24,702 bases of DNA from a virus (lineage: Duplodnaviria > Caudoviricetes): positions 1-24,702 of IMG/VR virus record IMGVR_UViG_3300032282_001299, one strand, 5' to 3'. A program made the translations under genes and the position numbers. Each line of letters starts with the position of its first letter. Position 1 is the stretch's first letter. Positions 6,760-24,476 of this stretch are shown here, one piece after another. The notes under the pieces are model-generated. The model did no database searches. It worked only from the letters and a program-made list of their open reading frames with translations, and was not told the DNA's origin.

Positions 6760-7890
6760 TTAGCGTATGTTTTGTTTGCTTGGCGCAGGTACAGATGCAA
6801 TAGCCAGTAACCCTGTCACGGCAATAACTGCACGGCGAGTTCTAACAGGGACAGATGACCCAATTGGAACATAAGTATCTGTTTTGCCATTGAACAAATC
6901 AACTTCGTTCTCAAAAGCCTCACGAACCTCTGTCGGTGCATTTTGCACAGCCTCAACTAGTTGCTCTGCTTGGGCATCTGAAAGTTCGGTCACATCTAAA
7001 GATTGGAAGATTTCCGTTGCTGTTTCCTGCGTTACAGCATTGAGCACCTCAACGCTCGTAGCGAGGGCTAAAGCGTCATCAGGGGTAATGCCGTCTTCCA
7101 CACTCTGAGCCACGATAGAAGCGATTTCAGATTGAGGCAACTCGTCAATATTGGAAAGTAGTTCAGCGACCAATGGAGAAACTGCATCCGGCACGATAGT
7201 AGTTGATGTGATAACCTCGGGCTGTGATGTTGTTGTTGTGGTTATCAGCACTGGTGCAAGGGTTGTTGTGCTTGTTGTCGTACTTGTCGTGGAAGGAACG
7301 ACAGAAGTCGTAGTAGATGCGTAGACGATTGGCTCTGATGTTGTGGTTGTTATCGGGCGTACTGTTGTCGTCGTTATTGGGATTGTTGTGGTTGTGGTTG
7401 TGGTGGTCGTGGTTGAAGTGGTTGTCGTAGAAGTGGTAGTAGTGGACGTAGTAGATGTAGATGTAGTAGTGGTTGCTTCAGTAGTAGAAGTAGATGTTTG
7501 ACCTGCCCCATTGAACCCAAGTTCATACTGTAGATTCCACCCACCATTTGTACGCCAAGCGTTAGGGTCGCCACAACAGATACCAGCCCTTAGTCGATAC
7601 TTTCCTGCAGGTACAGCCAGAGAAATATAAGACTGCAATCCGAAACTGTCATCGTTCTGAGCGAGTAGAGTTCCTTCTTCGTTGTAGAGCCACAACATCG
7701 GGTCAGATGGATAGTTTTCTATCATATATGTCTGTGCTACGAACTGTGTCGGCTCAAGATAGTCAAACCAAAAATCTGTTGGCTGAGTAACAATCGGGTT
7801 ATTTGCTAATGCAGGCGAAGTGAACAATGCCAGTACTGCTACTGGTGCAAACACAAGCCAAAAACTACGGCGTATCTTCAGACGGAGCAT
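6760..7890 (-). CDS. Exported, membrane-anchored protein: beta-sandwich (PPC-like) domain, Thr-rich stalk, acidic helical domain, C-terminal hydrophobic anchor
   Basis: Signal peptide ...RRSFWLVFAPVAVLALFTSPALA. DPMLWLYNEEGTLLAQNDDS...PAGKYRLRA resembles pre-peptidase C-terminal domains. About 100-aa poly-Thr tract. Ends RRAVIAVTGLLAIASV. Exact start uncertain. Confidence 0.7.
   Translation of the reverse strand: MLRLKIRRSFWLVFAPVAVLALFTSPALANNPIVTQPTDFWFDYLEPTQFVAQTYMIENYPSDPMLWLYNEEGTLLAQNDDSFGLQSYISLAVPAGKYRLRAGICCGDPNAWRTNGGWNLQYELGFNGAGQTSTSTTEATTTTSTSTTSTTTTSTTTTSTTTTTTTTTTIPITTTTVRPITTTTSEPIVYASTTTSVVPSTTSTTTSTTTLAPVLITTTTTSQPEVITSTTIVPDAVSPLVAELLSNIDELPQSEIASIVAQSVEDGITPDDALALATSVEVLNAVTQETATEIFQSLDVTELSDAQAEQLVEAVQNAPTEVREAFENEVDLFNGKTDTYVPIGSSVPVRTRRAVIAVTGLLAIASVPAPSKQNIR
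7196..7500 (-). repeat. Low-complexity ACN (Thr codon) tract
   Basis: Runs of GTA/GTG/GTT/GTC on the plus strand encoding TTSTSTTEATTTTSTSTT... Confidence 0.85.
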
Positions 7891-7981
7891 TTTCTGTCCA
7901 TCCCGATTCAAGTAGTTCTGCGTATTCTTCCTCGGTCATTTCACGCACTTCATTATCTATTTGTATATTTGGTCTTGACAT
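7865..7981 (-). CDS. Small acidic protein (38 aa) after the tail fibre-like gene
   Basis: Not in track. Hand translation MSRPNIQIDNEVREMTEEEYAELLESGWTENAPSEDTP, starting 2 nt after the upstream stop. Confidence 0.55.
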   Translation of the reverse strand: MSRPNIQIDNEVREMTEEEYAELLESGWTENAPSEDTP

Positions 7982-8538: not shown

Positions 8539-10383
8539 TTACTTATAAAGAATAACATCTGTGCCACCAATAGTAGAAAAACCAATACGAAACACAGAAG
8601 CCCATCTATTAGAACCATTGATAAAAGTAGACCAATGATTGGGTTCAACTCTATGGCTTATTTTTTGTAGAAGAATATCTTTCGTAATGGTTGAACCTGT
8701 CGGTGGTGCAATTGCTAACGTTACTCGTTCATTTAGTTCAAGACCAAGAGTGGAAGCCCAGTTATTGTCGGGACTCAACACAACTTCCATATCCTCAAAT
8801 GAGGGAAATATCTGTTGCCCGAACCCGACAAGTATTTTGCCTACAGCAATAGTGGCTACTGGATTATCTAACTGCGTATCCCAAGTTTCTGAAGCCTCAC
8901 CATAAGTTGTTGTAGTAGAGCCTGTTTCTTGGTATTGCAATCCACCCGACATTGTTACATTTATAACATTCCTTAGTTCATCGCCGTTGTATTGCATTTG
9001 TACTTCTTTGCCTAAAGCCGTACCACCACTTCCATAGGTCACTTGGCTATTGAACGATTTGGTGTTTGTAAATCTGTCGTATCTACCCATCATTGTGACC
9101 ACGCCTGACCTATCTACAAATAGTGGAGCGCACTCAGCGTTGGCAACTAGTTCTAGTTCGGGTGCTACAAATGGTGCGTCATCTGTTATTTCTAAAACAG
9201 AAGCGTTAGGCGATGCAGGAGTAGACACTAACGATGTTGAAAAAATGGTTTGTGCAATAATTCTAGATACACGAGCACTTGTTGTTTCAAGAAAGTTTGC
9301 TGTTGAATATTTGATTATGGTTTGTATTTCTGCTTGTGACCGTGCAGTTGTCCATTGGCACAGTTGTTGCATCGCACCAGCGTAAATGTTTACATAATCA
9401 CCATCAGTTGGAAAGAATATGCCACCAACTGCCGTACTCCTCGTACCAGTGACATCTACACCATTGACATAAATAACAGCAGTGAATAGTACTCCGTTCC
9501 ACGCAAAAGCAAAATGTACTGATTCGCTTTCTTGAAGCGCCGAAGTAATAGTCGTATAACTATATGTAGTGTTTGTTCCGAATGAAGTGACTTGCAATAC
9601 AAACTTGCCACTAGTGAATGACACATTCCATCCGAAGTTTCCTGTTTGACCACCGATAATGCCATTGGTGGCGTTGCCATTTGGTATTACCCAAAATGCG
9701 ACAGTGAAGTTATTGTTTGCAGTGAAATAACTTGGGTTGCCACCAAAACCTAAATCGTTAGTTGCAATAACATCTAATCCTGATGCAGTATTAGCAATTC
9801 CACCCAAAGAAGAATCAACTAAACCAACAGCCAACTGACCTTCATTTAGCGCATTGGTTTTTGTAGTAAGAGGTAATGGAACAGAACCGTAGTCAAACAT
9901 TGTACTTGCACTAAAATTAGTTATCGGTTCGTCAAGAGGCCAAAAATGTCTCGGACTAAGTGATTTGATATAAGCCTTTGCCCAATCTTGAGGTAACTGT
10001 TCAGTTGCCAACAACTGCAAAGCGTCAAAACAAGACAACGTTACTGTAGACATTTTGCCTGCATCGCTCCACTCAACAGGCCAGCCGTCTATATATCCAC
10101 GAAAAACTGGATATGTTGTCGCACTATAAACAGCCTCTATTTTTATTTGTTTTCTCGGAAACAACTTGCCAGCATAAGTTCCTGCACTATTGAAAGGGTC
10201 GTATTTGCGTGAAGTGTTTAGTAACACCACTTGTGCACTACCACTAAATGAACCCCAATCACCATCGGTTCCTCTATCAATAGACATACTAAGAACATCG
10301 GTAGTCACTTCTGTCCAAGTGGGTGACAATGCGTAAGGTGTATCGTCAAAAGCGATATAAACTTTTGGTGTTGGATATGGCAT
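8539..10383 (-). CDS. Tail tip/baseplate hub protein with internal LamG/concanavalin-A-like domain
   Basis: Follows the tape measure gene (TAATG overlap). N-terminal WTEVT.DV...IDRG...VFRGYID...TVTLSCFD tail-hub pattern. Central FWPLDE...FTVAFWV...HFAFAWNG...IYVNG is LamG-like. Confidence 0.75.
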   Translation of the reverse strand: MPYPTPKVYIAFDDTPYALSPTWTEVTTDVLSMSIDRGTDGDWGSFSGSAQVVLLNTSRKYDPFNSAGTYAGKLFPRKQIKIEAVYSATTYPVFRGYIDGWPVEWSDAGKMSTVTLSCFDALQLLATEQLPQDWAKAYIKSLSPRHFWPLDEPITNFSASTMFDYGSVPLPLTTKTNALNEGQLAVGLVDSSLGGIANTASGLDVIATNDLGFGGNPSYFTANNNFTVAFWVIPNGNATNGIIGGQTGNFGWNVSFTSGKFVLQVTSFGTNTTYSYTTITSALQESESVHFAFAWNGVLFTAVIYVNGVDVTGTRSTAVGGIFFPTDGDYVNIYAGAMQQLCQWTTARSQAEIQTIIKYSTANFLETTSARVSRIIAQTIFSTSLVSTPASPNASVLEITDDAPFVAPELELVANAECAPLFVDRSGVVTMMGRYDRFTNTKSFNSQVTYGSGGTALGKEVQMQYNGDELRNVINVTMSGGLQYQETGSTTTTYGEASETWDTQLDNPVATIAVGKILVGFGQQIFPSFEDMEVVLSPDNNWASTLGLELNERVTLAIAPPTGSTITKDILLQKISHRVEPNHWSTFINGSNRWASVFRIGFSTIGGTDVILYK

Positions 10384-11915
10384 TATGCAGCGACACCTGT
10401 TCTTCTACCATAAGCATTGAGTACTCGTTGGACTTCACGCCCTATAGCGACTGGGTCGCCTACGCCAGTTTGTATTGTGATGTTCATTCCACCACTCATT
10501 TGGTTCATCTTGGATAGTGGAATGATTGCTTCACTACCTGCCTCGCCTGCGAGAAGAAGGGTTGGCTTTGTGACGATGCCCCCCTTTGCCATTTTCGGAA
10601 CTGTATCCAATCGTGATTTGTCTGCGCCAGTAGGTGCAGCCTTTTCTCCGATGCGACCAAACTTGAACTCACCTAACAATGGAATGTCATCGTGGAACGG
10701 TAGAAGGTTGTAGCCACGAATAATTAGGTTAATAACTTGTCGCCACATGTTAGCCATAAACTCAAAATAGCCAATCACGGCATTGATGACTGTGTTCACT
10801 ACTTTTCTGAAACCCTCAAACTTTATGTATGCAGCAGCAAGACCGACAACAAGCAATGCGATGCCTGACACAATTAGACCGATACCTGTTGCGTTCCAAG
10901 CCACGCCAAATGCGACAACTGCAATATTGGCTAAACCTTGTGCAACAGTGAATGCAAGCGTGGCAACCTTCAACGCTGTTACTGCAGCGACAATGCCGTA
11001 GACAAGAGCACCGAAACCATCTAAGTCTTGGATTGCCTTTAGTCCTTTATCGCCTAAGAACTTGAGACCTGCACCAAGACCTTTCTGCCCGACAATGTCT
11101 TTGAACTGTTGGAAGATAGGCAAGATATTGTCGGTCACAAATCGAGAAAGTTTCTCAAACATAGGCAGAAGTAATGTCCCTAAATCTTCTGCGAGGTTAT
11201 CAATCGCCACTTTCATTCTGTCAAAATCAGTTGCCGTTGCTTGAGCAGTTCCACCAACCTGTGATTCCACTTCAGACAAAATTATTTTCTGTGCTTCAAG
11301 CGTATGACCTGATTTTACGAGTGTCTTGATTTGTTCTTTTTGTGCATCGGAGAAGTTGATACCTGCACGGTTCAATGCAGTAATACCTCTAACAGGATTA
11401 GACAAAGCCTTACCAAGTTGTTTTGCAGCACCATCAGTAGAGCCAAATACATTTCCTAAGTCAAGTGCAGCCTGAGATGCCCTATTGAAAATGTCGTTGC
11501 CTTTACCAGTTTCATTGCGTACCTGCTTGAAGGTCAGCAACAAGTTCATACTGCTCTGGATTGCTTCGTCATCAATACCAGTTTTTAGTGACAAACTATT
11601 TGCAAGGTCAGATATGTCTTTACTGGTCATACCTGCAGCACTGCCAGTTGCCTTGATAATTGCTTCTGTCTGCTTGGAAACTTTCTGTGATTCAAGTGCT
11701 GCTTTTATTAGCGTTCCACCAATAACGCCACCTACGCCACCTGCGATACCTGCAAGTTTTCCAAAACTCTTAGCGAAACTACCTACTGCTTTATTGGCGT
11801 TCAGTAATCCGAAGGCTGTTTTCTGACCTGCGCCCTCTAGTTTCTTGAAGTCACGGATTGCACGGTCAATTCCCTTGCTATCAAATGAACTAATAATTGG
11901 GACAACGATTGCCAT
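10383..11915 (-). CDS. Tape measure protein (510 aa)
   Basis: Ala/Gly/Lys-rich helical sequence, AKQLGKALSNPVRGITALNRAG core, hydrophobic segments, AYIKFEGFRKVVN, C-terminal MAKGGIVTKPT...GEAGSEAIIPL. Confidence 0.9.
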   Translation of the reverse strand: MAIVVPIISSFDSKGIDRAIRDFKKLEGAGQKTAFGLLNANKAVGSFAKSFGKLAGIAGGVGGVIGGTLIKAALESQKVSKQTEAIIKATGSAAGMTSKDISDLANSLSLKTGIDDEAIQSSMNLLLTFKQVRNETGKGNDIFNRASQAALDLGNVFGSTDGAAKQLGKALSNPVRGITALNRAGINFSDAQKEQIKTLVKSGHTLEAQKIILSEVESQVGGTAQATATDFDRMKVAIDNLAEDLGTLLLPMFEKLSRFVTDNILPIFQQFKDIVGQKGLGAGLKFLGDKGLKAIQDLDGFGALVYGIVAAVTALKVATLAFTVAQGLANIAVVAFGVAWNATGIGLIVSGIALLVVGLAAAYIKFEGFRKVVNTVINAVIGYFEFMANMWRQVINLIIRGYNLLPFHDDIPLLGEFKFGRIGEKAAPTGADKSRLDTVPKMAKGGIVTKPTLLLAGEAGSEAIIPLSKMNQMSGGMNITIQTGVGDPVAIGREVQRVLNAYGRRTGVAA

Positions 11916-14832: not shown

Positions 14833-16128
14833 TTAGAAGGTCGGTGTGACCAATCCAGTTCCATTGACTTGAGCCCATGCGTTTGGATAACGGTTAGCCG
14901 TGTAAGCAGCGTATCCATAGACAACAATGGTTACATCAAGTTCTGATACTCGTGGTTGCTCAAAGCGCAACATCATTGGCTGACCATTGCCATCTTCCCA
15001 CAAGTGAAGTTCTTGTGCGTTACCAATGTAGATGGTGTCTTGGTTTGTGCCTGCACCCTTGTTCGTTGCAATTGTTGCATCGGTTACAACTGGCAATCCA
15101 GCAATGCTATATCCACTGTTTCCGTACTGAACAGCACCTGAACCAACAGAAAGTGCGTTCATAGGGCCATTAGGTGTAGGTACAGCAAGTGGTCGGTTGC
15201 TTGAGTCAAGTGCTGCAAGAATCCAAGCCAAACGGCGTGGATGCATAATGATTACATTAGGCCCAGCAAAGAAAGTTGTCTGAACTTTCTGGATTCCGTC
15301 AAGCAATTTTGGATAAATCTCAGCCACTGTCGGTGAAGCGTCTGTATAGGTAACTGCTTGTCCTGCAGATGAGAACAATTCAGCAACAACAAGTGTGTTC
15401 AAGTTGGTGTGATAAGCCGATACAAGGTCTGCCATTACGAGGGCGTCAATGCCTGTTCCACGCTCAATTGCTTGGCGAGTGACATTTTGCTGACCAGCAA
15501 TGGTCTGAACAGTAATGTCCAACTTCGTGTCGTCCATGTCTGTTTCTTGAACAGCGTCACCTTCAGTTTGAACTGCAGTTGCAGAACCAGTTGTCACCTT
15601 AGAGATTGACAATGTCAAACCTGCAGGTGGAAGTTGATGCTTACGAGCAATGTCTGCTGTTGGGCGACCTGCACGAGCGTATGGCGCTGCCAAGTCTGTG
15701 AGATACTGAGGAACAATCAAGCCTGAGAAGTTAGATGAAGTAACTTCACGGCGTTCAATACGCTCTTCATTCATGTGACGAGCAAGGCGCTCACGAGCCT
15801 CAAAATCATTGTTGAACTGTGCAGAGAAAGCATCAGACAAGAATGAGTTTTCAGAACGCTCCGTGTAGGTGCGAGCCTCTGATTTTACAACTGCAGGCTT
15901 GATGCCAGCAATTTCTCGTGCTTCAGATGCTTCTTTAGAACGCTGTGCAAGTTCTTCTTGCTGTGCGATAGATGCATCGAGGTCACGAACTTGAGTAAGT
16001 GAATCAGATACTTCTGTGTCTTCGGCAGGCGTGAGGTCACGGTTTTCCTGCTCTGCTAATTGCACGAGTGACTCTGCTTTTGTAACAAGAGCCTCACGCT
16101 TTTCATGGAGTTTTGCTAAGTATGACAT
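14833..16128 (-). CDS. Major capsid protein, HK97 fold, with N-terminal coiled-coil scaffolding (delta) domain
   Basis: Start ATG 16128 (AGGAAAG). Coiled-coil N-terminus (AEQENRDLT.AE), then GLIVPQYL, QTEGDAV.ETD, IIMHPRRL, IAGLPVVTD. Follows the protease gene. Confidence 0.92.
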   Translation of the reverse strand: MSYLAKLHEKREALVTKAESLVQLAEQENRDLTPAEDTEVSDSLTQVRDLDASIAQQEELAQRSKEASEAREIAGIKPAVVKSEARTYTERSENSFLSDAFSAQFNNDFEARERLARHMNEERIERREVTSSNFSGLIVPQYLTDLAAPYARAGRPTADIARKHQLPPAGLTLSISKVTTGSATAVQTEGDAVQETDMDDTKLDITVQTIAGQQNVTRQAIERGTGIDALVMADLVSAYHTNLNTLVVAELFSSAGQAVTYTDASPTVAEIYPKLLDGIQKVQTTFFAGPNVIIMHPRRLAWILAALDSSNRPLAVPTPNGPMNALSVGSGAVQYGNSGYSIAGLPVVTDATIATNKGAGTNQDTIYIGNAQELHLWEDGNGQPMMLRFEQPRVSELDVTIVVYGYAAYTANRYPNAWAQVNGTGLVTPTF

Positions 16129-16206: not shown

Positions 16207-17823
16207 TTATCTTGTTCGTGCAATTGCTACTTGCTGTCGGCGCAAGCGTGTAGGTGCACTAGGCGCAGTGTAATGCATATTTCGCAGTTCTGCAATAGTT
16301 TCCTCATAAGCAGGGTAAGTGACTACGGAAACATCATAAAGTTGAACTTCACGCAACTGGCGTACTGAACGGTCTGCGTTCCAAGTGTCTTTTATGGTTC
16401 TAAAAGCGAACGACATTTGATTGAGGTCGCCTCTACGAAGTGCAGACATTATTTGTTGTGCTAATGGGTTGGCAGGGTCAAGGTCTGCCTCAACCTTCAA
16501 TCCTCTTGAATCTTCGCTCAATCGCAAAGTGCCTGATTTGGTTCGGGCAAGAGGAGCACCATCGTGGTCAAATAATAGACGAACATCAGCACCGTCTTTT
16601 AGGGTCTTGGTAAATGCGCCCCTTGTTACATACTCGGTGAAACCTAAGTCTTGAGATGGCGTATCCCACATCGCAGCATAACCTACAAGGGTTGTACCGT
16701 CACCCTCGGAACGGACTTCCAAGTTTGAATAGGCTATTGAACGCTTGTCGTCAATAGAACGAGTTACCCACTCAACCGTGTTGCTCCGAGTGGCAAGAAC
16801 ATCTAAAGAAGCCTTCAACTGCCAATCCCATTTTTGATGCTGGTCAATTCTCTCGGCAAGAAAATTAGCAATACCCTGTTCATCCGTTTCATCAGCAACC
16901 TCAAAAGTATTACGCAAACAAATAAGTATTTGAGTATTGCCAAGAAGCAACGCTGTTGCCAAAGCAGAGGTTGTATCTGCTGGTGCAGTTTGGCGTACAG
17001 AACTCATAGACAAAAAGTCTTGAAGCATGAATGGTGCTTCGCCCCCAAGTTTGCGAATGTTTTCTGCAATTGGGTCAATAGAACTATAAATATCTTCGTA
17101 AATCTCACCGAAAAGTGAATGGTACTGCGAAAAGTCTGTTCCTCTTACATTCCAATGCGAACCATGCGCTTGAAAATAAAGAGAAACGGCATCGGACAAT
17201 AGTTCCCTAAGACCATCTACCAAAGAGTAGGTCGGCATAGGTTCTTCTACATCTACCTCTGCTTCTGCTACTGGTTCTACAACTGATTCAACCATGTCCA
17301 TAAGTGCTCCTCGTTTGGCTTCCTTGTCAAAGTTATCTACCACTCTAATAGCATATTGCATTGCTCGTTGTGCATCTTTTTTAGATGGCCCAGAACCCCA
17401 AAGAAGATGAGCCACTAATCCTGCGCCCGGATAACCACTATCGTTTGGGTCATTATTTTTGGGTGCATCTAAATCAACTAAATGTCTTGCTATCCAAGGG
17501 GCTATTTTGCGCCACTTTTCTATTGACACATCGCCGTTAGCCATTTTACGAGCAGAACTAATAGTCGCTTGAACAAGACCATCGCCACCATAACCATCGG
17601 CGTAAAGTTTCAATCCTCGCTTTGCAGCGTTCCTCATATAAGTAGGGGCTGAAAGGTCTACTGCTCTTTCGCTTTTGGAAATTGCAATATTCAATGCGTC
17701 TGCATGGGCATTTGCGTGTTCTTCTGTGTGGTGGCATCCACCGTCAATAGGGATTTGTGAACCCACTTTTACAACAGCAAAACCGTTGCATCCATTTGCA
17801 TTGTCAATAACTTCGTATGGCAT
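16207..17823 (-). CDS. HK97-family prohead protease polyprotein: two unknown N-terminal domains + Dps (mini-ferritin) domain + protease domain
   Basis: C-terminal LVGYAA, GAFTKTL, LLFDHD (His), GTLRLSEDSRGL, QMSFAF (Ser), DVSVVTYPAY. Central AHGSHWNVRGTDFSQYHSLFGEIY...IDPIAENIRKLG...HQKWDWQL is Dps. ATG 17823 overlaps the upstream TGA. Confidence 0.92.
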   Translation of the reverse strand: MPYEVIDNANGCNGFAVVKVGSQIPIDGGCHHTEEHANAHADALNIAISKSERAVDLSAPTYMRNAAKRGLKLYADGYGGDGLVQATISSARKMANGDVSIEKWRKIAPWIARHLVDLDAPKNNDPNDSGYPGAGLVAHLLWGSGPSKKDAQRAMQYAIRVVDNFDKEAKRGALMDMVESVVEPVAEAEVDVEEPMPTYSLVDGLRELLSDAVSLYFQAHGSHWNVRGTDFSQYHSLFGEIYEDIYSSIDPIAENIRKLGGEAPFMLQDFLSMSSVRQTAPADTTSALATALLLGNTQILICLRNTFEVADETDEQGIANFLAERIDQHQKWDWQLKASLDVLATRSNTVEWVTRSIDDKRSIAYSNLEVRSEGDGTTLVGYAAMWDTPSQDLGFTEYVTRGAFTKTLKDGADVRLLFDHDGAPLARTKSGTLRLSEDSRGLKVEADLDPANPLAQQIMSALRRGDLNQMSFAFRTIKDTWNADRSVRQLREVQLYDVSVVTYPAYEETIAELRNMHYTAPSAPTRLRRQQVAIARTR

Positions 17824-18083
17824 CAATCTACACTCGGTGTCATAACACGCACATTTTCAGTACCACTAGCAGTCACAGCCCATAGTTCTTCATTAGCAGG
17901 CAAATTCATAACAAAAGGTACTGCGTTTTTTTCGGTGAGCATACCGTTGGCAGATGTCACATCAGCCCCACCGATATAGACAGTTCCAGCACCAAGAGTA
18001 TGTAAATAAACCTCACGATTGATGTTGTCTTTGTCCACTATTTTCACTCTTGTTGTGGATACAGAATAAGCGTACGTGTTCAT
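17823..18083 (-). CDS. Small beta-rich head-module protein (86 aa)
   Basis: Coupled to both portal (ATGA) and protease (TGATG). TVYIGGADVTSANG...LWAV. Function unknown. Confidence 0.7.
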   Translation of the reverse strand: MNTYAYSVSTTRVKIVDKDNINREVYLHTLGAGTVYIGGADVTSANGMLTEKNAVPFVMNLPANEELWAVTASGTENVRVMTPSVD

Positions 18084-19261
18084 GCAGGCAAATCCGAAAT
18101 TGCTGCTGGCAACGGTGGCACAGCATCAATACCAATTGAAGATGCGACCTGACCGTAGTAGAAGTTGTCGCCACCTTCGTATGGCTCTCTACCTTCTAGT
18201 GCTCTTGCTTCGTTAGGCGACAATGTCCCAGACTGGATTTGCACTTGTTGTGCCTGCACTCTTGTCATCAAATCTCCCCTCATAAGACCATCAGCATTGA
18301 GTCGTACTCTTTGAGGCACTGGCAACATAGAACTAAGAGTATCTTCAAGGCGATGCATCCAAGGAAGTAAAGTGTGGCGCACAAAATTGATACCTGCTGA
18401 TTCAACATTTTGATAAGTTTGTGTATCTCCACCTGTGCCTGCAATTAGGTGTAGAGGAATTCTATACGCTCTTGCGACATCTCGCACAATAGATTCCCTA
18501 TGTTCCATTGTGTCCATATCCGATGCCGATGCCGTAACTGAACGCCACTTCAATCCACCTGCTAGTACTGCTGGTCTGCGCCTTTTCCAATGTGCGTCTT
18601 CCCAAGTGTTTCTTAGGATTTCTGCTTGTTCCATTGTCACTTGCTGGTCAGTTTCCAATACTGATGAAGGTGTTGCTCCATCGCCGTAAAACTGTGCGAG
18701 AAAACGGTCAATAGCAATTCCAGTACCAATAATGTTGCGAAGTGCATCTAGTGGTGATACGCCGTAAGCCTGATTCGGAAAACGAAGCCACGAAATATGG
18801 TACATAGATTCAGGGTCTAACTCATTTTTTCCATAAGAGTAAATCCGATTACCGTTATCTCCAATTACGACTGTTACTAAAAGTGGGTGTAGGCAACGCA
18901 TTTCTAGTGGTGCTTGTCCTGCGTTGCGTGGTGCAAAGATAAAAGCATTGCCGTGAAGGGCGAGAGTAGCAATAGTTTGGTGAATAAACTCAAACATGTT
19001 TTGGTCATCATTTGGTTTTACGAAAACACTTGGAACTGGTAATTCTTGAATAGTTCCACCTACGTCACGATAAACCTGTAAAGGCATTGTGGCGATTGAA
19101 TCTGCCAAGAGTGTTACGGCTGATAGTACGGCAGTAGATGATATTGCAGTTCGTTCAGTAACAATTTCACCTGAATAGTTGGGAAATGCTGGACGAGCAG
19201 ATATTTGGTTTGGGTCTATTGAAACTGGAAGTGCCCGAAACTCTCGGCGAATAATGCTCAT
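18080..19261 (-). CDS. Portal protein, HK97 family
   Basis: Start revised to ATG 19261. AVTLLADSIATMPL, LALHGNAF, YGVSPL, FYGDGATPS, VARAYRIPLHLI, TLLPW..RLE, LSPNEARALEG. Confidence 0.95.
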   Translation of the reverse strand: MSIIRREFRALPVSIDPNQISARPAFPNYSGEIVTERTAISSTAVLSAVTLLADSIATMPLQVYRDVGGTIQELPVPSVFVKPNDDQNMFEFIHQTIATLALHGNAFIFAPRNAGQAPLEMRCLHPLLVTVVIGDNGNRIYSYGKNELDPESMYHISWLRFPNQAYGVSPLDALRNIIGTGIAIDRFLAQFYGDGATPSSVLETDQQVTMEQAEILRNTWEDAHWKRRRPAVLAGGLKWRSVTASASDMDTMEHRESIVRDVARAYRIPLHLIAGTGGDTQTYQNVESAGINFVRHTLLPWMHRLEDTLSSMLPVPQRVRLNADGLMRGDLMTRVQAQQVQIQSGTLSPNEARALEGREPYEGGDNFYYGQVASSIGIDAVPPLPAAISDLPA

Positions 19262-19400: not shown

Positions 19401-20915
19401 TCACCAAACTGGAACGACACTAGGGCCATTGTATCCATCAGGTTTGCGTGTCGCTCGGTCAAGCGCAATAACCATTGCAATACAAGCGTCAATCTTTCTG
19501 TGGCTCTTGCCTTTACTTAGTCGCCACCCATTGTCCGTCATGCGTTGCGCTGCAGAAAGAACTTGGTCTGTGAAAACTGGTGAGCCGTTATGCACAATCT
19601 TGCTGTTGATGATGAGTTCATATGTGTGACCACAGGCTGGAATCATACGCTGACTACTCTGAGGGTATTCAACCATTGGAAGTCCATCGTCTATAAGGAT
19701 TTCGGCAGAACGCTGGAAATATGCAGGGTCGTAGGCAAACTCTTTTATGTTGTAGTTCAAATGGATTTCCCGAAGGTAATGCTCAATGGTCGCAACATCT
19801 ACTGCCTTCTCGGACGGATGCCAAATCTTGGCTGATACGGCTACCTTCTCTCCTTGAGGTTGAGCCATAACAACAGCAATGCTGTCGTGTTTCAATGCCA
19901 TGTCAATGCCCACCCAAGTTTCTAGGTCAGGGTCTATCTCTACTTCACCTGCAAGTCTTTCCCATGCGCCTGCAGGGAGCCAACTTTCTTCTGCTCTTAC
20001 CCATTGGTTCAAGCGAAATCTACGAAATGCCATTTCGCTTGACTGTCGTGCAGATGTTTCAAGGTCGTCTTCGTCTATCAACTTGGAAGCCAAGTTGGGA
20101 TTGCATTGTTTCCATACAGTCTTGTCCGTGATTGAGCAATCGGCTGGTGCTTCCCACCAAAAGAACCCAAAGTTCTCATCTTGCTGTTCACCCATAGCAA
20201 CAGACTTGCCGTAGTCGTAAAGCCTTCCACAAAGAGTGTTGATGTCATAACCTGCTGTAGTAATTGAGACAATCATTGGGTCTACACGAGCACCCGAACC
20301 TAGTGTAAGTTGGTCATAAAGGTCATCGTTTCTCTGTACCCATAGTTCGTCAAAGATAACTAGTGAAGGGTTTAGACCAGCCTGAGATTTAGCGTCTGCC
20401 GATAGAACTCGATACACCGAGTTGAAAGCAGGAACTTCAATAGCGTCACGATAAACCTTGCAATGGGCAGACAGGACTGGAGATTTGACTACTTGTTCCC
20501 GAGCCTCGTTGAATACAATGCGAGCCTGCTTACGGTCACCTGCAGCCGAATACACTTCTGCACCTGCTTCACCAGCGAATAGACCATAAAGAGCAAGGGC
20601 TGACCCCATTAGAGATTTACCTTGCTTTCTCGGTAGTCCGACAACTGCACGACGATATCGCAAACGATTATTGTCTCGGCGTTCAAGCAAAGCTTTCAAT
20701 AGCCACTGTTGCCACTCAACAAACTCTAAAGGCTGTCCTGCTCTGACACCTTTGGAAACTCTTAGCCACTGGTAGGCAAAATCAATAACATCATCACCAT
20801 CACTAATGTTGCTATGGCGTTTTGTGTAATAAGTCGGCTCCCACGCCTTTTTAGGCAGTAGCCCTCTTTGTTGCGATTCTGTCACGGAAGTCTTGGATTG
20901 CGTCATTGGAGACAT
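19401..20915 (-). CDS. terL: Terminase large subunit
   Basis: WQQWLL adenine-binding Q, Walker A GLPRKQGKS, Walker B LVIFDE, ITTAG motif III, nuclease GIDMA, YDP and KIDAC. Exact start uncertain. Confidence 0.97.
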   Translation of the reverse strand: MSPMTQSKTSVTESQQRGLLPKKAWEPTYYTKRHSNISDGDDVIDFAYQWLRVSKGVRAGQPLEFVEWQQWLLKALLERRDNNRLRYRRAVVGLPRKQGKSLMGSALALYGLFAGEAGAEVYSAAGDRKQARIVFNEAREQVVKSPVLSAHCKVYRDAIEVPAFNSVYRVLSADAKSQAGLNPSLVIFDELWVQRNDDLYDQLTLGSGARVDPMIVSITTAGYDINTLCGRLYDYGKSVAMGEQQDENFGFFWWEAPADCSITDKTVWKQCNPNLASKLIDEDDLETSARQSSEMAFRRFRLNQWVRAEESWLPAGAWERLAGEVEIDPDLETWVGIDMALKHDSIAVVMAQPQGEKVAVSAKIWHPSEKAVDVATIEHYLREIHLNYNIKEFAYDPAYFQRSAEILIDDGLPMVEYPQSSQRMIPACGHTYELIINSKIVHNGSPVFTDQVLSAAQRMTDNGWRLSKGKSHRKIDACIAMVIALDRATRKPDGYNGPSVVPVW

Positions 20916-21315
20916 TGTTCATTCCTAGTCGGGCTCGGTCTGTTGGTGAGAAGCCTAGCGCAGAAAGGTTTTGAGCAATCATCTTTTCTAATGTTCTCAA
21001 CGATGCTCTGTCTCGCCACTCTTGTTCCCTAAACACTTTCGTTCTCAATACTGCTCGTTCATCAACTTGCTCGCAAGTCATCATTACCAACTCAATGTCA
21101 GTATCTCTGCGAAGCCAAGCACAACCTGAAGTCCAAATAGAAGTCCATAGTTGAAAGCCTGGGCCATTGTCTATTAGTGGGCGATGTGGCTTAGGCATCT
21201 CACGATTTGCAATAACAGGTATTACATCTGTTGAAGGAAGTTTTCTTCCACCCGGATTGCCAATACGAGCCTTCTGTTCAATCGGCTTGGGCTTACGCCC
21301 TCTTGTCTCAGCCAT
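20851..21315 (-). CDS. terS: Terminase small subunit (P27-like)
   Basis: RGRKPKP...GNPGGRKL N-terminus and LGFSPTDRARLG C-terminus. Confidence 0.9.
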   Translation of the reverse strand: MAETRGRKPKPIEQKARIGNPGGRKLPSTDVIPVIANREMPKPHRPLIDNGPGFQLWTSIWTSGCAWLRRDTDIELVMMTCEQVDERAVLRTKVFREQEWRDRASLRTLEKMIAQNLSALGFSPTDRARLGMNNVSNDAIQDFRDRIATKRATA

Positions 21316-21610
21316 CTAATCTGTTTCCCCTGCGTGAGTTGCACGACCTATGTGCAGGCAATAACAAACTATCGGGATTACTAGGAACGACATGGTCGGC
21401 TGTCCATGGGTCATTGCGTCTTGCACCTTCGCCACAAATCCAACATTTACTGGCGTTCATGCGTACTTCTCTTGCTCGTCTTCGGTAGTCGCCTGCGTAG
21501 TGTGGGCGTTCCTTTTTAGGCTTGAGACTTTCACGGTAGATACGACAAGAGTTACACCTTGAATCGCTAGTGACTAAAACGCCACAGCCAAGACAAGGCT
21601 TAGGAATCAC
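21308..21610 (-). CDS. HNH endonuclease (terminase-associated, gp74-like)
   Basis: CxxC...CxxC zinc motifs, CWICGE...TADHVVP...AHRSCNSRRG. Immediately upstream of terS. Confidence 0.9.
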   Translation of the reverse strand: MIPKPCLGCGVLVTSDSRCNSCRIYRESLKPKKERPHYAGDYRRRAREVRMNASKCWICGEGARRNDPWTADHVVPSNPDSLLLPAHRSCNSRRGNRLDG

Positions 21611-22137
21611 GATGCTTTAGTCGGGATATGTTCACATTGGATTTCGTCAAGCAATCCTTTTGCGCCACATATTCCACATTCAACTTCCCCAAGTTCGGTA
21701 GCGATTGCGTTGTATTCAACTAACGCCATGCGTTCAGGGTCATCTGGAAGTTTATGTGGTGAGCCAACAGCGAGGATGTGGTGTTCTTCAATAGCCCCAA
21801 CAGCATGAGGATGGTCACTTTCAATGAAATAAACCTGCCCTGCGTGGGTCGGATAAATCTTGGAATCAACTGTAATAGTTCCCTTGCCTGCAATAACAAT
21901 CAGTAGATGTGCCCCCGGATGAGTGTGAGGTGGAAAGCCTGCTCCTGCAGGAACTGAGATGTGGTCTACGCCTAGCGCACCACTACTGACCAATGGCCAT
22001 GCAGTTGCTGTCGTGTTGTGCATATGCACAGTTCCTTCACCCTTGAAAGGTGTGATAGAACCGTCTCCGTTGTCTGTTGCCCAATCAGCAATAATCAAAT
22101 TGCCGTTTGCGTCTTTACCGTGTACTTGATTGCTCAT
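21607..22137 (-). CDS. Cupin-domain protein with C-terminal CxxC...CxH tail
   Basis: Start revised to ATG 22137 (ATGA overlap). Motif 1 GAGFPPHTHPGAHLLIVIAGKG, motif 2 GQVYFIESDHPHAV. Confidence 0.85.
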   Translation of the reverse strand: MSNQVHGKDANGNLIIADWATDNGDGSITPFKGEGTVHMHNTTATAWPLVSSGALGVDHISVPAGAGFPPHTHPGAHLLIVIAGKGTITVDSKIYPTHAGQVYFIESDHPHAVGAIEEHHILAVGSPHKLPDDPERMALVEYNAIATELGEVECGICGAKGLLDEIQCEHIPTKAS

Positions 22138-22643
22138 CGTTTTTCTGCCACCCATGCTGGTTTGTATTCATCGTTGCCTGCTCGTTTTATCATCTGCCCT
22201 CTATCGAGAAGACGACTTACTTCTTCTTTTTCCATGCCCAATCTCTTTATAAGTTCGGCAGGTTCAATATCAAGTTCGTCAATAAGTTCAGTAACGATAT
22301 CTGCCATAGACATTACATAATGTTCGCCTCTTGCACGGTTATGTCTGATGGTTGCCATGCGTTGGCGAGCAGGGTCAATTTCCTTGATAAACACTACTGG
22401 CACTAGACCGTCTGTAAGTTTGGCAACATCCTTGTCTGCCGACACAGTCCAACGGTGAAATCCATCTACGATTTCTCCGTCAAGCCGAGCGACAATAGGT
22501 TGAGTCCAGCCGTCTTCCATAATGCTGACCTTCAATAAACCAAGTTCTGTCTTAGCCATTTTGTTCGGGTTGTAATCATTTGCTTTTAGCGTGGTGCGTT
22601 CTACCCACTGAACGCTTGCTATTGGTTGGTCTTCACGACTCAT
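22134..22643 (-). CDS. ibrB: ParB/Srx-like protein, IbrB/YbdM family
   Basis: QPIASVQWV, ANDYNPNKMA, SIMEDGWTQPIV, IVDGFHR, MATIRHNRARGEH and LGMEKEEVSRL. Directly downstream of an IbrA-like gene. Confidence 0.85.
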   Translation of the reverse strand: MSREDQPIASVQWVERTTLKANDYNPNKMAKTELGLLKVSIMEDGWTQPIVARLDGEIVDGFHRWTVSADKDVAKLTDGLVPVVFIKEIDPARQRMATIRHNRARGEHYVMSMADIVTELIDELDIEPAELIKRLGMEKEEVSRLLDRGQMIKRAGNDEYKPAWVAEKR

Positions 22644-23853
22644 CTTTTGTGCTCTTTTCTATGCTTTCTTTATATTTCTTCACCATTGAAGTTCTAGATG
22701 CCCCATCCGAAGTTGTCAATTTAGGAACAACTCTAGATTTGAAATCACCCTTAGACGCAACCTTCATAAGCATTCTCCATGAGATGCCTGTGACCGGATG
22801 TGGGGTGAAAAGTATTGGGTCGGTAGTTCTGCGATAGTGGCGATTAATATGCCCTTGTAGTTGCTTCGCTACAAACTTGCGTTCTTCAGGTGGGAACTTA
22901 TCTAGTTCGGCTAGAACTTTCTGTTCCCAAGTTTCACCTTCAGCAAGGTCGTCTTCCTTCACGCCACCTTGACCTGCATGGTAGAGCGCACCTCTTGCGT
23001 ATCGGGCTGCAGTCTTAGCCCCTGGCACTCTGTCGCCCAACTTATCCCATACATCAGGGAAGCATTTAGCGAACATCCATAAAGATTGCATTGGCTGTTC
23101 ACCGTATGGTGGTGCGATGCGTTGAAGATGATGAGCCATGCCTGCTAACTCCATCATGTCGTAGCCTCGGTTGTAGTCCCACCCATGCAGTTTCGGTGCT
23201 CGCCACACATCTTGTGTAGACCAGTCGTAGATTGGATAGACCTTCGCCATGCCTTTCTCGTGTTCAATGATGTAGTTATCTACCTCTTTGCGAGTGACTG
23301 CTTGACGACGACGGATTGATTCATCTGCTCGGATACCCATAATGAAACAAGTTCTGCCGTACTTACGAGGTGGATAAAGGATTGGGTCGGTCTCGGTGAA
23401 CGGTAGTCGTGCGCTTGCAGGCCAAATAGCAAAACCTTCTGCCTCTGTTTTCCCTTCAGGTGGAAGTGGGCGAACCCATTTTTCTTCCATCTCTGGAGCC
23501 CATGGATGCCAAATAGAATCGCCTTCTTCTGACGAGCAACTGTTTCGGTGGGCGATAGGCAAGCACCACCAGTCCAAATCAATGTCCTCAATCTCTGATA
23601 CACGCCTAACATATTCTTCTGTTTCGTAGGGAATTGCTTCCTCGTCAAAATGCTTGACCTTCAATGGCAATCGGTTTCTACGCCGTGCTTCTTCTAGCGC
23701 AAGGTTCAAGCAGACAGTCGAGTCTTTGCCACCCGAGAACGAAACGATAACTGTGTCAAATAAATCAAATGCCCTTGACACTCGTTCAACAGCCATCTCA
23801 TAAACATTCTTGTCAATGAAAGTCTGTCTTATATATTCTTTTGGGCGAGCCAC
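22633..23853 (-). CDS. ibrA: PAPS-reductase-like PP-loop protein, IbrA/YbdN family
   Basis: VSFSGGKDS PP-loop, FDEEA, MGIRADESIRR, YPIYDWSTQDVW, YNRGYDMMELAG, QRIAPPYG, WDKLGDRVPGA. Confidence 0.85.
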   Translation of the reverse strand: MARPKEYIRQTFIDKNVYEMAVERVSRAFDLFDTVIVSFSGGKDSTVCLNLALEEARRRNRLPLKVKHFDEEAIPYETEEYVRRVSEIEDIDLDWWCLPIAHRNSCSSEEGDSIWHPWAPEMEEKWVRPLPPEGKTEAEGFAIWPASARLPFTETDPILYPPRKYGRTCFIMGIRADESIRRRQAVTRKEVDNYIIEHEKGMAKVYPIYDWSTQDVWRAPKLHGWDYNRGYDMMELAGMAHHLQRIAPPYGEQPMQSLWMFAKCFPDVWDKLGDRVPGAKTAARYARGALYHAGQGGVKEDDLAEGETWEQKVLAELDKFPPEERKFVAKQLQGHINRHYRRTTDPILFTPHPVTGISWRMLMKVASKGDFKSRVVPKLTTSDGASRTSMVKKYKESIEKSTKDES

Positions 23854-24476
23854 TCTGCCACCACCTTCATAAGAGCGTCATTGCGATTTGTAATTCCTGT
23901 GGCGTGAAGGGCATCACGCAAGGTGTCAAACTCGGCTGAGGTTAGATAGAACTGAGCAACCTTCGTGTCATTGGTGACATGATTGGACTCGCTTTCCATA
24001 GGGTTGTGAGCACCTTCAGTGTCAATACTGGTGATACCCGACACAGCCATGTTGGCGATTGACTGCGACTGGCTAGCAAGCATGTCGTCAAGGTCGTCCT
24101 GATTCCAGACAAGACCTTCCATGTCGTAGCCCCTAGCGAACTCAGAAAGGATTTCTGCCAGTGCAAAACTGTCGTAGTCGGCAAGGTCGCTTGTGCGATT
24201 ATCGGCAAGCAAGATACGCAAGGCTCGGTCATCGTCCATGTCAAGTTCAATCACAGCAATCTTGTCCCACTTCAGCGACTTTGCAGCCGACCAAGTGTGG
24301 TTGCCTGCGACGATAAAGCCAGTTGATTTCTGTACGAGGATTGGTCGGTATTGACCGTGCGCTTCAAGTGAAGTGCAGATTGCACCTACATCACCTTGAC
24401 GGACATTCTTCGGATGGGGGGAGATGCTGTCTATTGGGACTGCGCTCTTGGCTAGTTCTTTTCGGATATTGCTCAT
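23829..24476 (-). CDS. ParB N-terminal (ParB/Srx-like) domain protein
   Basis: VPIDSISPHPKNVRQGDV..I..SL..HGQYRPILV...IVAGNHTW.AAK.L.W...LADNRTSDLA, typical of phage ParB-like domains near packaging genes. Confidence 0.88.
   Translation of the reverse strand: MSNIRKELAKSAVPIDSISPHPKNVRQGDVGAICTSLEAHGQYRPILVQKSTGFIVAGNHTWSAAKSLKWDKIAVIELDMDDDRALRILLADNRTSDLADYDSFALAEILSEFARGYDMEGLVWNQDDLDDMLASQSQSIANMAVSGITSIDTEGAHNPMESESNHVTNDTKVAQFYLTSAEFDTLRDALHATGITNRNDALMKVVAEWLAQKNI

Follow-up and report, generated by a model that had tools for sequence, protein, structure and literature searches.

The gene described here lies in IMG/VR virus record IMGVR_UViG_3300032282_001299, a linear virus fragment of 24,702 bases from a tailed phage, which was analysed over its full length and is called the window below. 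On its minus strand, an open frame of 538 codons (16207-17823; ATG at 17823) encodes a protein that joins a Dps (mini-ferritin) domain to an HK97-type prohead protease. This Dps-protease fusion is real, selected, and recurrent. Furthermore, comparison with related loci indicates that the Dps is dispensable, since it is an optional passenger and at least seven modules are in play, and that the gene is not a dedicated Dps carrier. The genes run in the order terminase, portal, an 86-codon orphan, the protease polyprotein, the HK97-fold capsid, and then connector and tail genes. A first-pass annotation of the same DNA had described one uninterrupted frame between the portal and capsid genes; no internal stop was found, and the 86-codon gene intervenes behind the portal. 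The polyprotein and its parts are as follows.

16207-17823, minus strand: prohead-protease polyprotein gene, 538 amino acids, comprising a Cys/His peptide, helical module, acidic linker, Dps, S78 protease, and basic tail (open reading frame, Pfam, PHROG, TIGR01543)
17665-17823, minus strand: optional N-terminal module of 53 residues ('MPY') with a C...CH pattern, ending S-E-R53|A, a candidate cut site (sequence comparison)
17311-17664, minus strand: helical module, residues 54-171, part of phrog_2859, with five helices (phrog_2859 E 5e-6; AlphaFold predicted local distance difference test, pLDDT, 90)
17233-17310, minus strand: acidic linker, residues 172-197, behind A-K-R171|G, with 0 K/R and 8 D/E (composition)
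16801-17232, minus strand: Dps domain, residues 198-341, with His223, Trp224, His235, Asp250, and Glu254 intact and with Gly239 and Asn255 deviating from solved Dps (Pfam, PDB matches, ratio of nonsynonymous to synonymous substitution, dN/dS, 0.036)
16711-16800, minus strand: linker, residues 342-371; its R|S junctions, four in number (R346, R355, R361, R371), are candidate cut sites (sequence, alignment)
16282-16710, minus strand: HK97-type S78 protease domain with invariant His420 and Ser471 (Pfam, TIGR, 51 relatives)
16210-16281, minus strand: basic C-terminal tail, residues 515-538, behind E-L-R514 (isoelectric point, pI, 12; conservation in 51 relatives)

The same fusion was found in a second contig (L001/L104; 33,283 bases) with a DNA identity of 81%. 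When this single sequence pair was compared by the Nei-Gojobori method, dN/dS was lowest in the protease (0.027) and the Dps (0.036), followed by the helical module (0.076), the portal (0.080), and the capsid (0.157). Strong purifying selection thus acts on the Dps domain. The Dps region, used as a query, returned 305 proteins of 295-942 residues; among the 120 listed, 65 had the Dps before a close S78 domain and 2 had it behind, so that the architecture recurs elsewhere. The window is a single 24.7-kb fragment judged from its assembly, which would be compatible with an assembly chimera or with a neutral, decaying insertion. Since the separate contig carries the same fusion at 81% identity, and in view of the low dN/dS of the Dps and the 65 homologues, this explanation is hardly credible; no stop interrupts the frame between the domains.

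The identity of the Dps domain was consistent with its first description. Pfam Ferritin (PF00210) matched residues 203-343 with 56.8 bits (cut-off 24.5), and all PDB sequence matches of the 538-residue protein fell on this stretch, the best being 8ff9 (E 1e-19) and the top matches being Dps, NAP, and Dlp. The scores under three NCBIfam Dps models, which are lineage-specific and cellular, stayed below their cut-offs (40.9 against 114, 43.5 against 170, and 34.4 against 300 bits). His223, Asp250, and Glu254 have the spacing (27, 31) of His31, Asp58, and Glu62 of Listeria Dps, and the window copy has His235 as well; these three Listeria residues are ligands of the inter-subunit ferroxidase centre (PMC8389677; papers given by PMC number are cited for the portions of their text that were available). 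The four ligands (His, His, Asp, Glu) were intact in 100 of 101 protease-fused copies and in all 166 free viral copies. A distinctive iron-entry pore at Asn320 was dropped as a candidate, as solved Dps differ among themselves at this position.

The first-pass annotation had also assigned a DNA-protecting role to the domain by way of Dps. Fragment 172-346 has a pI of 4.2 with 10 K/R against 29 D/E and no basic tail, and the median net charge across 42 fused Dps domains was -13. The basic DNA-binding tail occurs only in the DNA-binding subgroup of Dps. Binding of DNA by such an acidic domain is therefore doubtful, and any protection would be achieved through removal of Fe(II) and not by coating of the DNA.

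With regard to the protease, Peptidase_S78 (PF04586) matched residues 367-515 with 154.5 bits (cut-off 21) and TIGR01543 gave 119 bits against a cut-off of 59. His420 and Ser471, which we take to be the catalytic residues, were invariant in 51 of 51 relatives, in agreement with the HK97-type protease with His and Ser motifs reported from the letters. Arg514 was likewise invariant, and the tail's Leu-Arg almost so; the basic tail presumably resembles the C-terminal targeting segment of HK97 gp4 and is likely, by this analogy, to direct the protein to the prohead. Residues 1-171, which the first-pass annotation had not covered, consist of two recurrent modules, the Cys/His peptide of 53 residues and the helical domain of 118. 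The former (MPY) was found on 32 of 72 non-redundant proteases, with the C...CH pattern in 27 of the 32, and is missing from sister L001; it matched no Pfam family. The AlphaFold model of the latter had no Foldseek match at E<=0.001, and its best VIA match (Z 5.3) was to generic helical bundles. Sub-cut-off Pfam OGG matches (E 0.003-0.02) in 8 of 30 proteins raised the idea of an 8-oxoguanine glycosylase, which was not adopted because Foldseek and VIA gave no support. A single-sequence fold prediction of the whole protein (pLDDT 34) was discarded.

Within the acidic linker, GAGGAG stands five bases before the ATG of Met175 (nucleotide 17301) and is conserved in sister L104. ATGs with a ribosome-binding-like sequence were found at 8 of 78 positions in linkers as compared with 4 of 292 in domains. 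Met175 is a possible nested start for a Dps-protease form of 364 residues.

Subsequently, the content of the stretch before the protease was compared among relatives. The modules shuffled there include the Cys/His peptide, a HiPIP-like four-Cys module, the helical module, DUF5824, Tudor, HAD phosphatase, and Dps, together with unassigned stretches. At six loci whose proteases are 94-96% identical to that of the window, DUF5824 occupies the Dps slot, and when the window was aligned with three sister loci, DNA homology ended at residues 164-168 and restarted at residues 347-349. On a 72-row protease tree, the presence of Dps required 8 changes, 5 of them forced by well-supported branches; six of the seven modules needed at least 8 changes, and HAD needed 3. 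A 127-row Dps tree, with few columns and many open forks, gave 7 changes for the canonical fusions, 3 of them forced. The nearest named phage, phiPsal1, carries the peptide, HiPIP-like, and helical modules and no Dps.

The HiPIP-like module (C-x2-C...C...C-x2-W; Pfam HIPIP, below cut-off) was found on 16 of 72 non-redundant proteases, for example at L098:2882-3070 and in L102, L111, and L097; it could be another iron-binding passenger besides the Dps. The helical module was also found at the C-terminus of a 617-residue portal (L070:3425-5278). It occurs in an isolated phage as well, Nodularia phage vB_NpeS-2AV2, whose gp15 (L188:6524-8017), three genes past the portal, combines Tudor, the helical module, and InPase.

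By its distribution, this Dps is a member of a mainly viral group. With two clade-specific patterns, the viral collection yielded at least 542 confirmed matches, whereas the genome collection yielded 1, on a contig where it lay beside a capsid gene; when 201 genomes of one phylum were compared, this contig was again the sole match with more than 33% identity. Identity to the window Dps was 32% for a cellular copy and 44-77% for viral copies outside the close sisters. No isolate in the annotated phage collection spans the whole 538-residue protein; 8 of its records matched the Dps region at 24-27% identity, and their annotations name stress or DNA-binding proteins and in no case a protease.

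Among 297 distinct Dps domains, gathered by a length window so that the counts are not frequencies, 101 were joined to a prohead protease: 61 to canonical S78, 16 to divergent S78-like, 5 to XkdF, and 19 to a weakly identified type. The joined proteases span five profile groups, and the Dps stands on either side of them. The 19 carriers were labelled by phrog_859 as Dps fused to portal. This label was rejected, as the region can be aligned, though weakly, to the protease core (hhalign E 0.013) and has a sub-threshold S77 match, the proteins match head-maturation-protease PHROGs, and they stand before the capsid gene; they are counted as probable proteases only. A set of 95 redundant Dps loci, where annotation of head genes was limited to PHROG matches on cluster representatives, comprised 13 protease fusions, 7 other long fusions (5 of them adjoining a head gene), and 75 free genes, 27 of which adjoin a recognised head gene and 1 of which lies within three genes of one.

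Several further arrangements were observed. A free Dps with an N-terminal extension ending K-A/S stands directly behind an XkdF protease gene in L035, L036, L067, L069, L071, L072, L078, and L081, and L041 has the Dps fused to the XkdF protease. Long proteins P0002, P0004, and P0242 contain two tandem Dps domains, two of the three with a divergent S78 protease as well. L023, L051, L059, and P0243-P0255 are mostly head proteins of 1,660-1,900 residues that carry the helical module together with a probable protease, several having a Cys-rich cluster before the Dps. Free Dps genes in L002, L005, L006, L052, L057, L058, and L086 share a short N-terminal extension (W-N-G-F-R/K-V...A), with a metallophosphoesterase among their neighbours; the shared sequence could be a capsid-targeting tag.

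The arginines at the module borders were then considered together with the neighbouring head genes, which are given below.

14833-16128, minus strand: HK97-fold major capsid protein, 431 amino acids, with a predicted removable delta domain (residues 1-127, 15748-16128) that is rich in E-x-R and ends E-R-R|E (profile matches, motif counts)
17823-18083, minus strand: gene of 86 amino acids with no known family, between the genes for portal and protease; its stop overlaps the protease start (TGATG)
18080-19261, minus strand: HK97-type portal protein (profile matches)
19401-21315, minus strand: terminase large and small subunit genes (profile matches)

The 86-residue orphan is also kept in the sister contig, and its look-alikes in the Atlas are unnamed, mostly viral clusters.

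At the delta-domain junction of the capsid, E-R-R followed by D or E was found in 55 of 55 sequences. In 19 non-redundant capsids, E-x-R occurred 129 times in the delta domains (31.9 expected) and not once in the mature parts (8.6 expected); loss of the delta domain is predicted. In the cassette linkers other than those leading into the protease, E-x-R (41 against 16.1 expected) and R-A/S (60 against 20.2) were enriched, with no enrichment of the control motifs E-x-K and R-x-E, and the 23 non-head proteins of the window were neutral for E-x-R (17 against 19.7). R-A/S was present in 99 of 120 linkers, as compared with a mean of 46 and a maximum of 63 in shuffles, and the density of cut-like motifs was 33 per 1000 residues in linkers versus 1.3 in the domain. 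An origin of the motifs as remnants of ribosome sites was rejected, AGA/AGG codons being used for 15 of 75 motif arginines and for 139 of 786 in domains.

The flanks of the Dps varied with the protease. For 59 canonical S78 fusions, R-A/S was found 113 times (48 expected) and K-A/S 30 times (31 expected). In divergent S78 fusions the lysine counts were 26 against 9.7 (K-A/S, 8 fusions) and 11 against 4.8, and in the 7 free Dps that stand behind XkdF protease genes K-A/S reached 8 against 1.6. These counts indicate that the flank motif tracks the protease lineage, with arginine for canonical S78 and lysine for the others.

Taken together, these findings led us to propose that the protease carries exchangeable modules, the Dps among them, into the assembling prohead. 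The HK97-type prohead protease family acts inside the prohead; modules fused to it are therefore likely carried in, and loading of the long form is very probable. The protease would then release the modules at the same stage as the delta domains, by cutting at arginine sites that resemble those of the capsid delta domain, and overall release of an intact Dps is probable. The folded 19-kDa fragment would be hard to clear and could self-associate, as the inter-subunit iron site demands. The freed Dps would stay in the mature head, bind or oxidise Fe(II), and limit Fenton damage to the packaged genome. To the whole chain of loading, release, retention, self-assembly, and iron chemistry in the particle we assign a probability of about 0.45, and an iron enzyme working inside the virion is plausible. 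The internal proteins of T4 provide a precedent for such loading, trimming, and retention, since they are directed to the core, undergo trimming by the prohead protease, and remain in the head (PMC9026906), and giant-phage internal proteins are likewise loaded and trimmed by the prohead protease (PMC9026906, PMC5694885). A wider picture, in which many uncultured tailed phages build functional mini-ferritin cages in DNA-filled heads, the released subunits assemble and mineralise iron, the virion detoxifies and stores iron and may pass it to the next host, and the slot is reloaded by recombination, is doubtful.

The first-pass annotation had already suggested that the phage uses its maturation protease as a carrier. 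That part of the idea gains from the fusion of Dps to several protease lineages on either side, from the free copies that adjoin a head gene, and from the motifs that follow the protease lineage, and it loses from the Dps being an optional passenger that sister phages do without.

A number of observations weigh against the proposal. First, the passenger is rare among close relatives: the Dps was missing from six of the seven closest protease loci, it was present in 1 of 80 loci retrieved by the helical module, and of 58 metagenome loci with a match on the protease side a single one spanned the junction, the lone carriers in the latter two sets being the same sister contig. Second, the iron site is not entirely canonical. 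Four residues after the second His, where an acidic residue is expected, the window has Gly239; an acidic residue stood there in 17 of the 101 fused copies and in 68 of the 166 free viral ones. We take the acidic residue to be the counterpart, in position and role, of Listeria Asp47, at a place that is variable among Dps (Gln in one of five solved Dps compared). The Arg that follows the Glu254 equivalent (A-E-R) in five of five solved Dps was found in none of the 297 copies; all have Asn instead, as the window does with Asn255. The earlier statement that the ferroxidase residues are all present accordingly holds for His223, His235, Asp250, and Glu254 and does not extend to these two positions.

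Third, the cleavage motifs are not uniform, and their counts come from related sequences that are not independent. Enrichment was absent from the four XkdF C-terminal fusions (7 against 8.2). At the upstream junction of the window protein itself, A-K-R171|G, the fit to the motif is poor; the nested start at Met175 could instead supply the upstream end of the Dps. The portal was also enriched in E-x-R (63 against 30.5). These portal motifs (window 18080-19261 and relatives) cluster near both ends and at two inner positions, and portal trimming is possible.

The interior of the fused Dps contained 6 E-x-R against 6.3 expected (18 sequences), and this lack of depletion gives no sign of shielding from the protease. 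Shielding had been a candidate on the basis of an initial depletion (7 against 15), which was gone after redundancy filtering, and the reversed control motifs were depleted too. The Dps could then act during assembly only, clustering proteases through its self-association or buffering iron in the empty prohead before being digested and lost with the delta domains, in the way that T4 core and scaffold proteins are digested to fragments (PMC5694885). Such a role is improbable, however: the iron ligands are kept equally strictly in fused and free copies, the cut-like motifs gather in the linkers and not across the domain, and sister phages assemble without any Dps.

The free copies bear on where the protein works. 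Because 47 of the 75 free viral copies had no recognised head gene nearby, a cytoplasmic role also fits, in which the Dps is an auxiliary stress gene expressed late and strongly through the fusion and its entry into the prohead is incidental. The module is optional, as such a gene might be, and phage Dps genes have already been read as helpers of host oxidative tolerance (PMC8008677, PMC6669764). Nevertheless, the joining recurs with proteases and not with arbitrary late genes, protease-matched motifs are found even on free Dps behind XkdF genes, and a free gene would give late expression without fusion; we thus regard a cytoplasmic function as rather unlikely.

A different destination is indicated by the companions. 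The HAD phosphatase among the modules and a zeta-like kinase in related genes point to action in the cell rather than in the particle, and the Dps, once loaded and cut, might enter the host with the DNA as an early effector that buffers iron or peroxide in the new cell. T4 internal proteins and Alt are ejected (PMC9026906), and polyvalent proteins have been proposed to be injected (PMC5512222). The helical module standing beside the InPase domain in Nodularia phage gp15 would agree with such a function. A Dps cage, however, has a diameter of about 9 nm and must come apart to pass the DNA channel, and the HK97 protease is present in tens of copies, an amount that would add little to the host's own ferritin-family proteins. 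Ejection as the purpose of loading is unlikely on these grounds, and retention in the head after release by the protease is the reading that we prefer.

If the Dps is in the particle, the virion carries a redox enzyme for self-protection or iron delivery. Iron in virus particles would then gain a defined protein, and phage internal proteins would extend past anti-defence roles. The sister phages form a natural control pair, with almost the same protease and head genes and with or without Dps. The cassette suggests that HK97-type proteases can be general cargo carriers with a readable cleavage code; it gives orphan modules (helical, DUF5824, HiPIP-like) a working context and bears on the protein loading of engineered capsids.

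Elsewhere in the window, no tRNA and no Rfam family was found, and promoter- and terminator-like sites were not in excess. A transglycosylase-like protein of the resuscitation-factor type (PF06737; 531-1133, minus strand) with a hydrophobic N-terminus lies outside the tail module. As phiPsal1 came with a Pontimonas culture, from which it was later lost (PMC6106888), this gene and that origin suggest an actinobacterial host. The tape-measure protein has only 510 amino acids (10383-11915, minus strand), suggesting a short non-contractile tail. A 383-residue protein (6760-7911, minus strand) with a long Thr/Ser-rich run and hydrophobic ends had no Pfam or PHROG match. Directly upstream of the HNH and terminase genes, 21607-24476 (minus strand) holds a Cupin gene, two ParB-like genes, and one PAPS-reductase/DUF3440 gene, a cluster that we take to be IbrAB-like and that possibly serves DNA modification.

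Among described kinds of protein, phage polyvalent proteins with an assemblin-like peptidase at their end come closest; these were described in 2017 (Iyer et al., PMC5512222) and proposed to be packaged and processed. As in those proteins, disparate domains are combined in one polypeptide with a C-terminal prohead-type peptidase in a phage with portal and terminase. The helical module accompanies InPase in the Nodularia phage protein. Their domains are mostly protein- or nucleic-acid-modifying enzymes, whereas the passenger here is an iron-handling one, and exchange between near-identical sisters is added by the present loci. The words 'Dps', 'ferritin', 'iron', and 'oxidative' do not occur in the main text of PMC5512222, its supplements aside, as far as that text was available. 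A search of the open-access literature, with most subscription papers outside it, likewise gave no description of a Dps-protease fusion in the portions available.

The window shares with HK97 gp4/gp5 the protease family, the order of the genes, and a capsid protein whose N-terminal domain is predicted to be removable. The HK97 gp4 of Duda et al. 2013 reportedly has no folded passenger; the window protease differs in carrying one, and its putative site is centred on arginine (E-x-R|small). With T4 IPI-III and Alt (PMC9026906), the common feature is optional, exchangeable cargo, loading and trimming being only predicted here. The T4 cargo is encoded by separate genes and bears a 10-residue tag cut after L/I-X-E by gp21, whereas here the protease chain itself would be the carrier.

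Cellular Dps (8ff9, 1ji5, H. pylori NAP 1ji4, and Listeria innocua Dps) have the ferritin-like domain and the same His/Asp/Glu spacing. Unlike them, the window copy reads A-E-N in place of A-E-R, has no basic tail, is fused, and falls under the NCBIfam cut-offs. Free phage Dps from the gut (PMC8008677), Lactobacillus (PMC6669764), Synechococcus phage S-SRM01, and Clostridium phages are phage-encoded too but have been interpreted as auxiliary genes for stress. A preparation of a Vi01-like phage was found to contain a protein with a predicted ferritin fold (PMC10892097).

The parallel with encapsulin-ferritin systems that the first-pass annotation drew stands as an analogy only. The likeness to Family 1 encapsulins, including Flp-shell fusions (PMC8346489), is that an iron protein with a four-helix bundle would be housed in an HK97-fold shell. 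An encapsulin is a compartment of the cell that is built from a single shell protein and loaded by a targeting peptide, an N-terminal domain, or fusion to the shell (PMC8346489), whereas the window comes from a tailed phage and includes genes for portal, terminase, connector, tail, and tape measure, its Dps is on the protease, and its shell is filled with DNA; the Dps-protease system is not an encapsulin. Head polyproteins of this kind were already known; the Dps is a new passenger in them, and its slot is demonstrably exchangeable.

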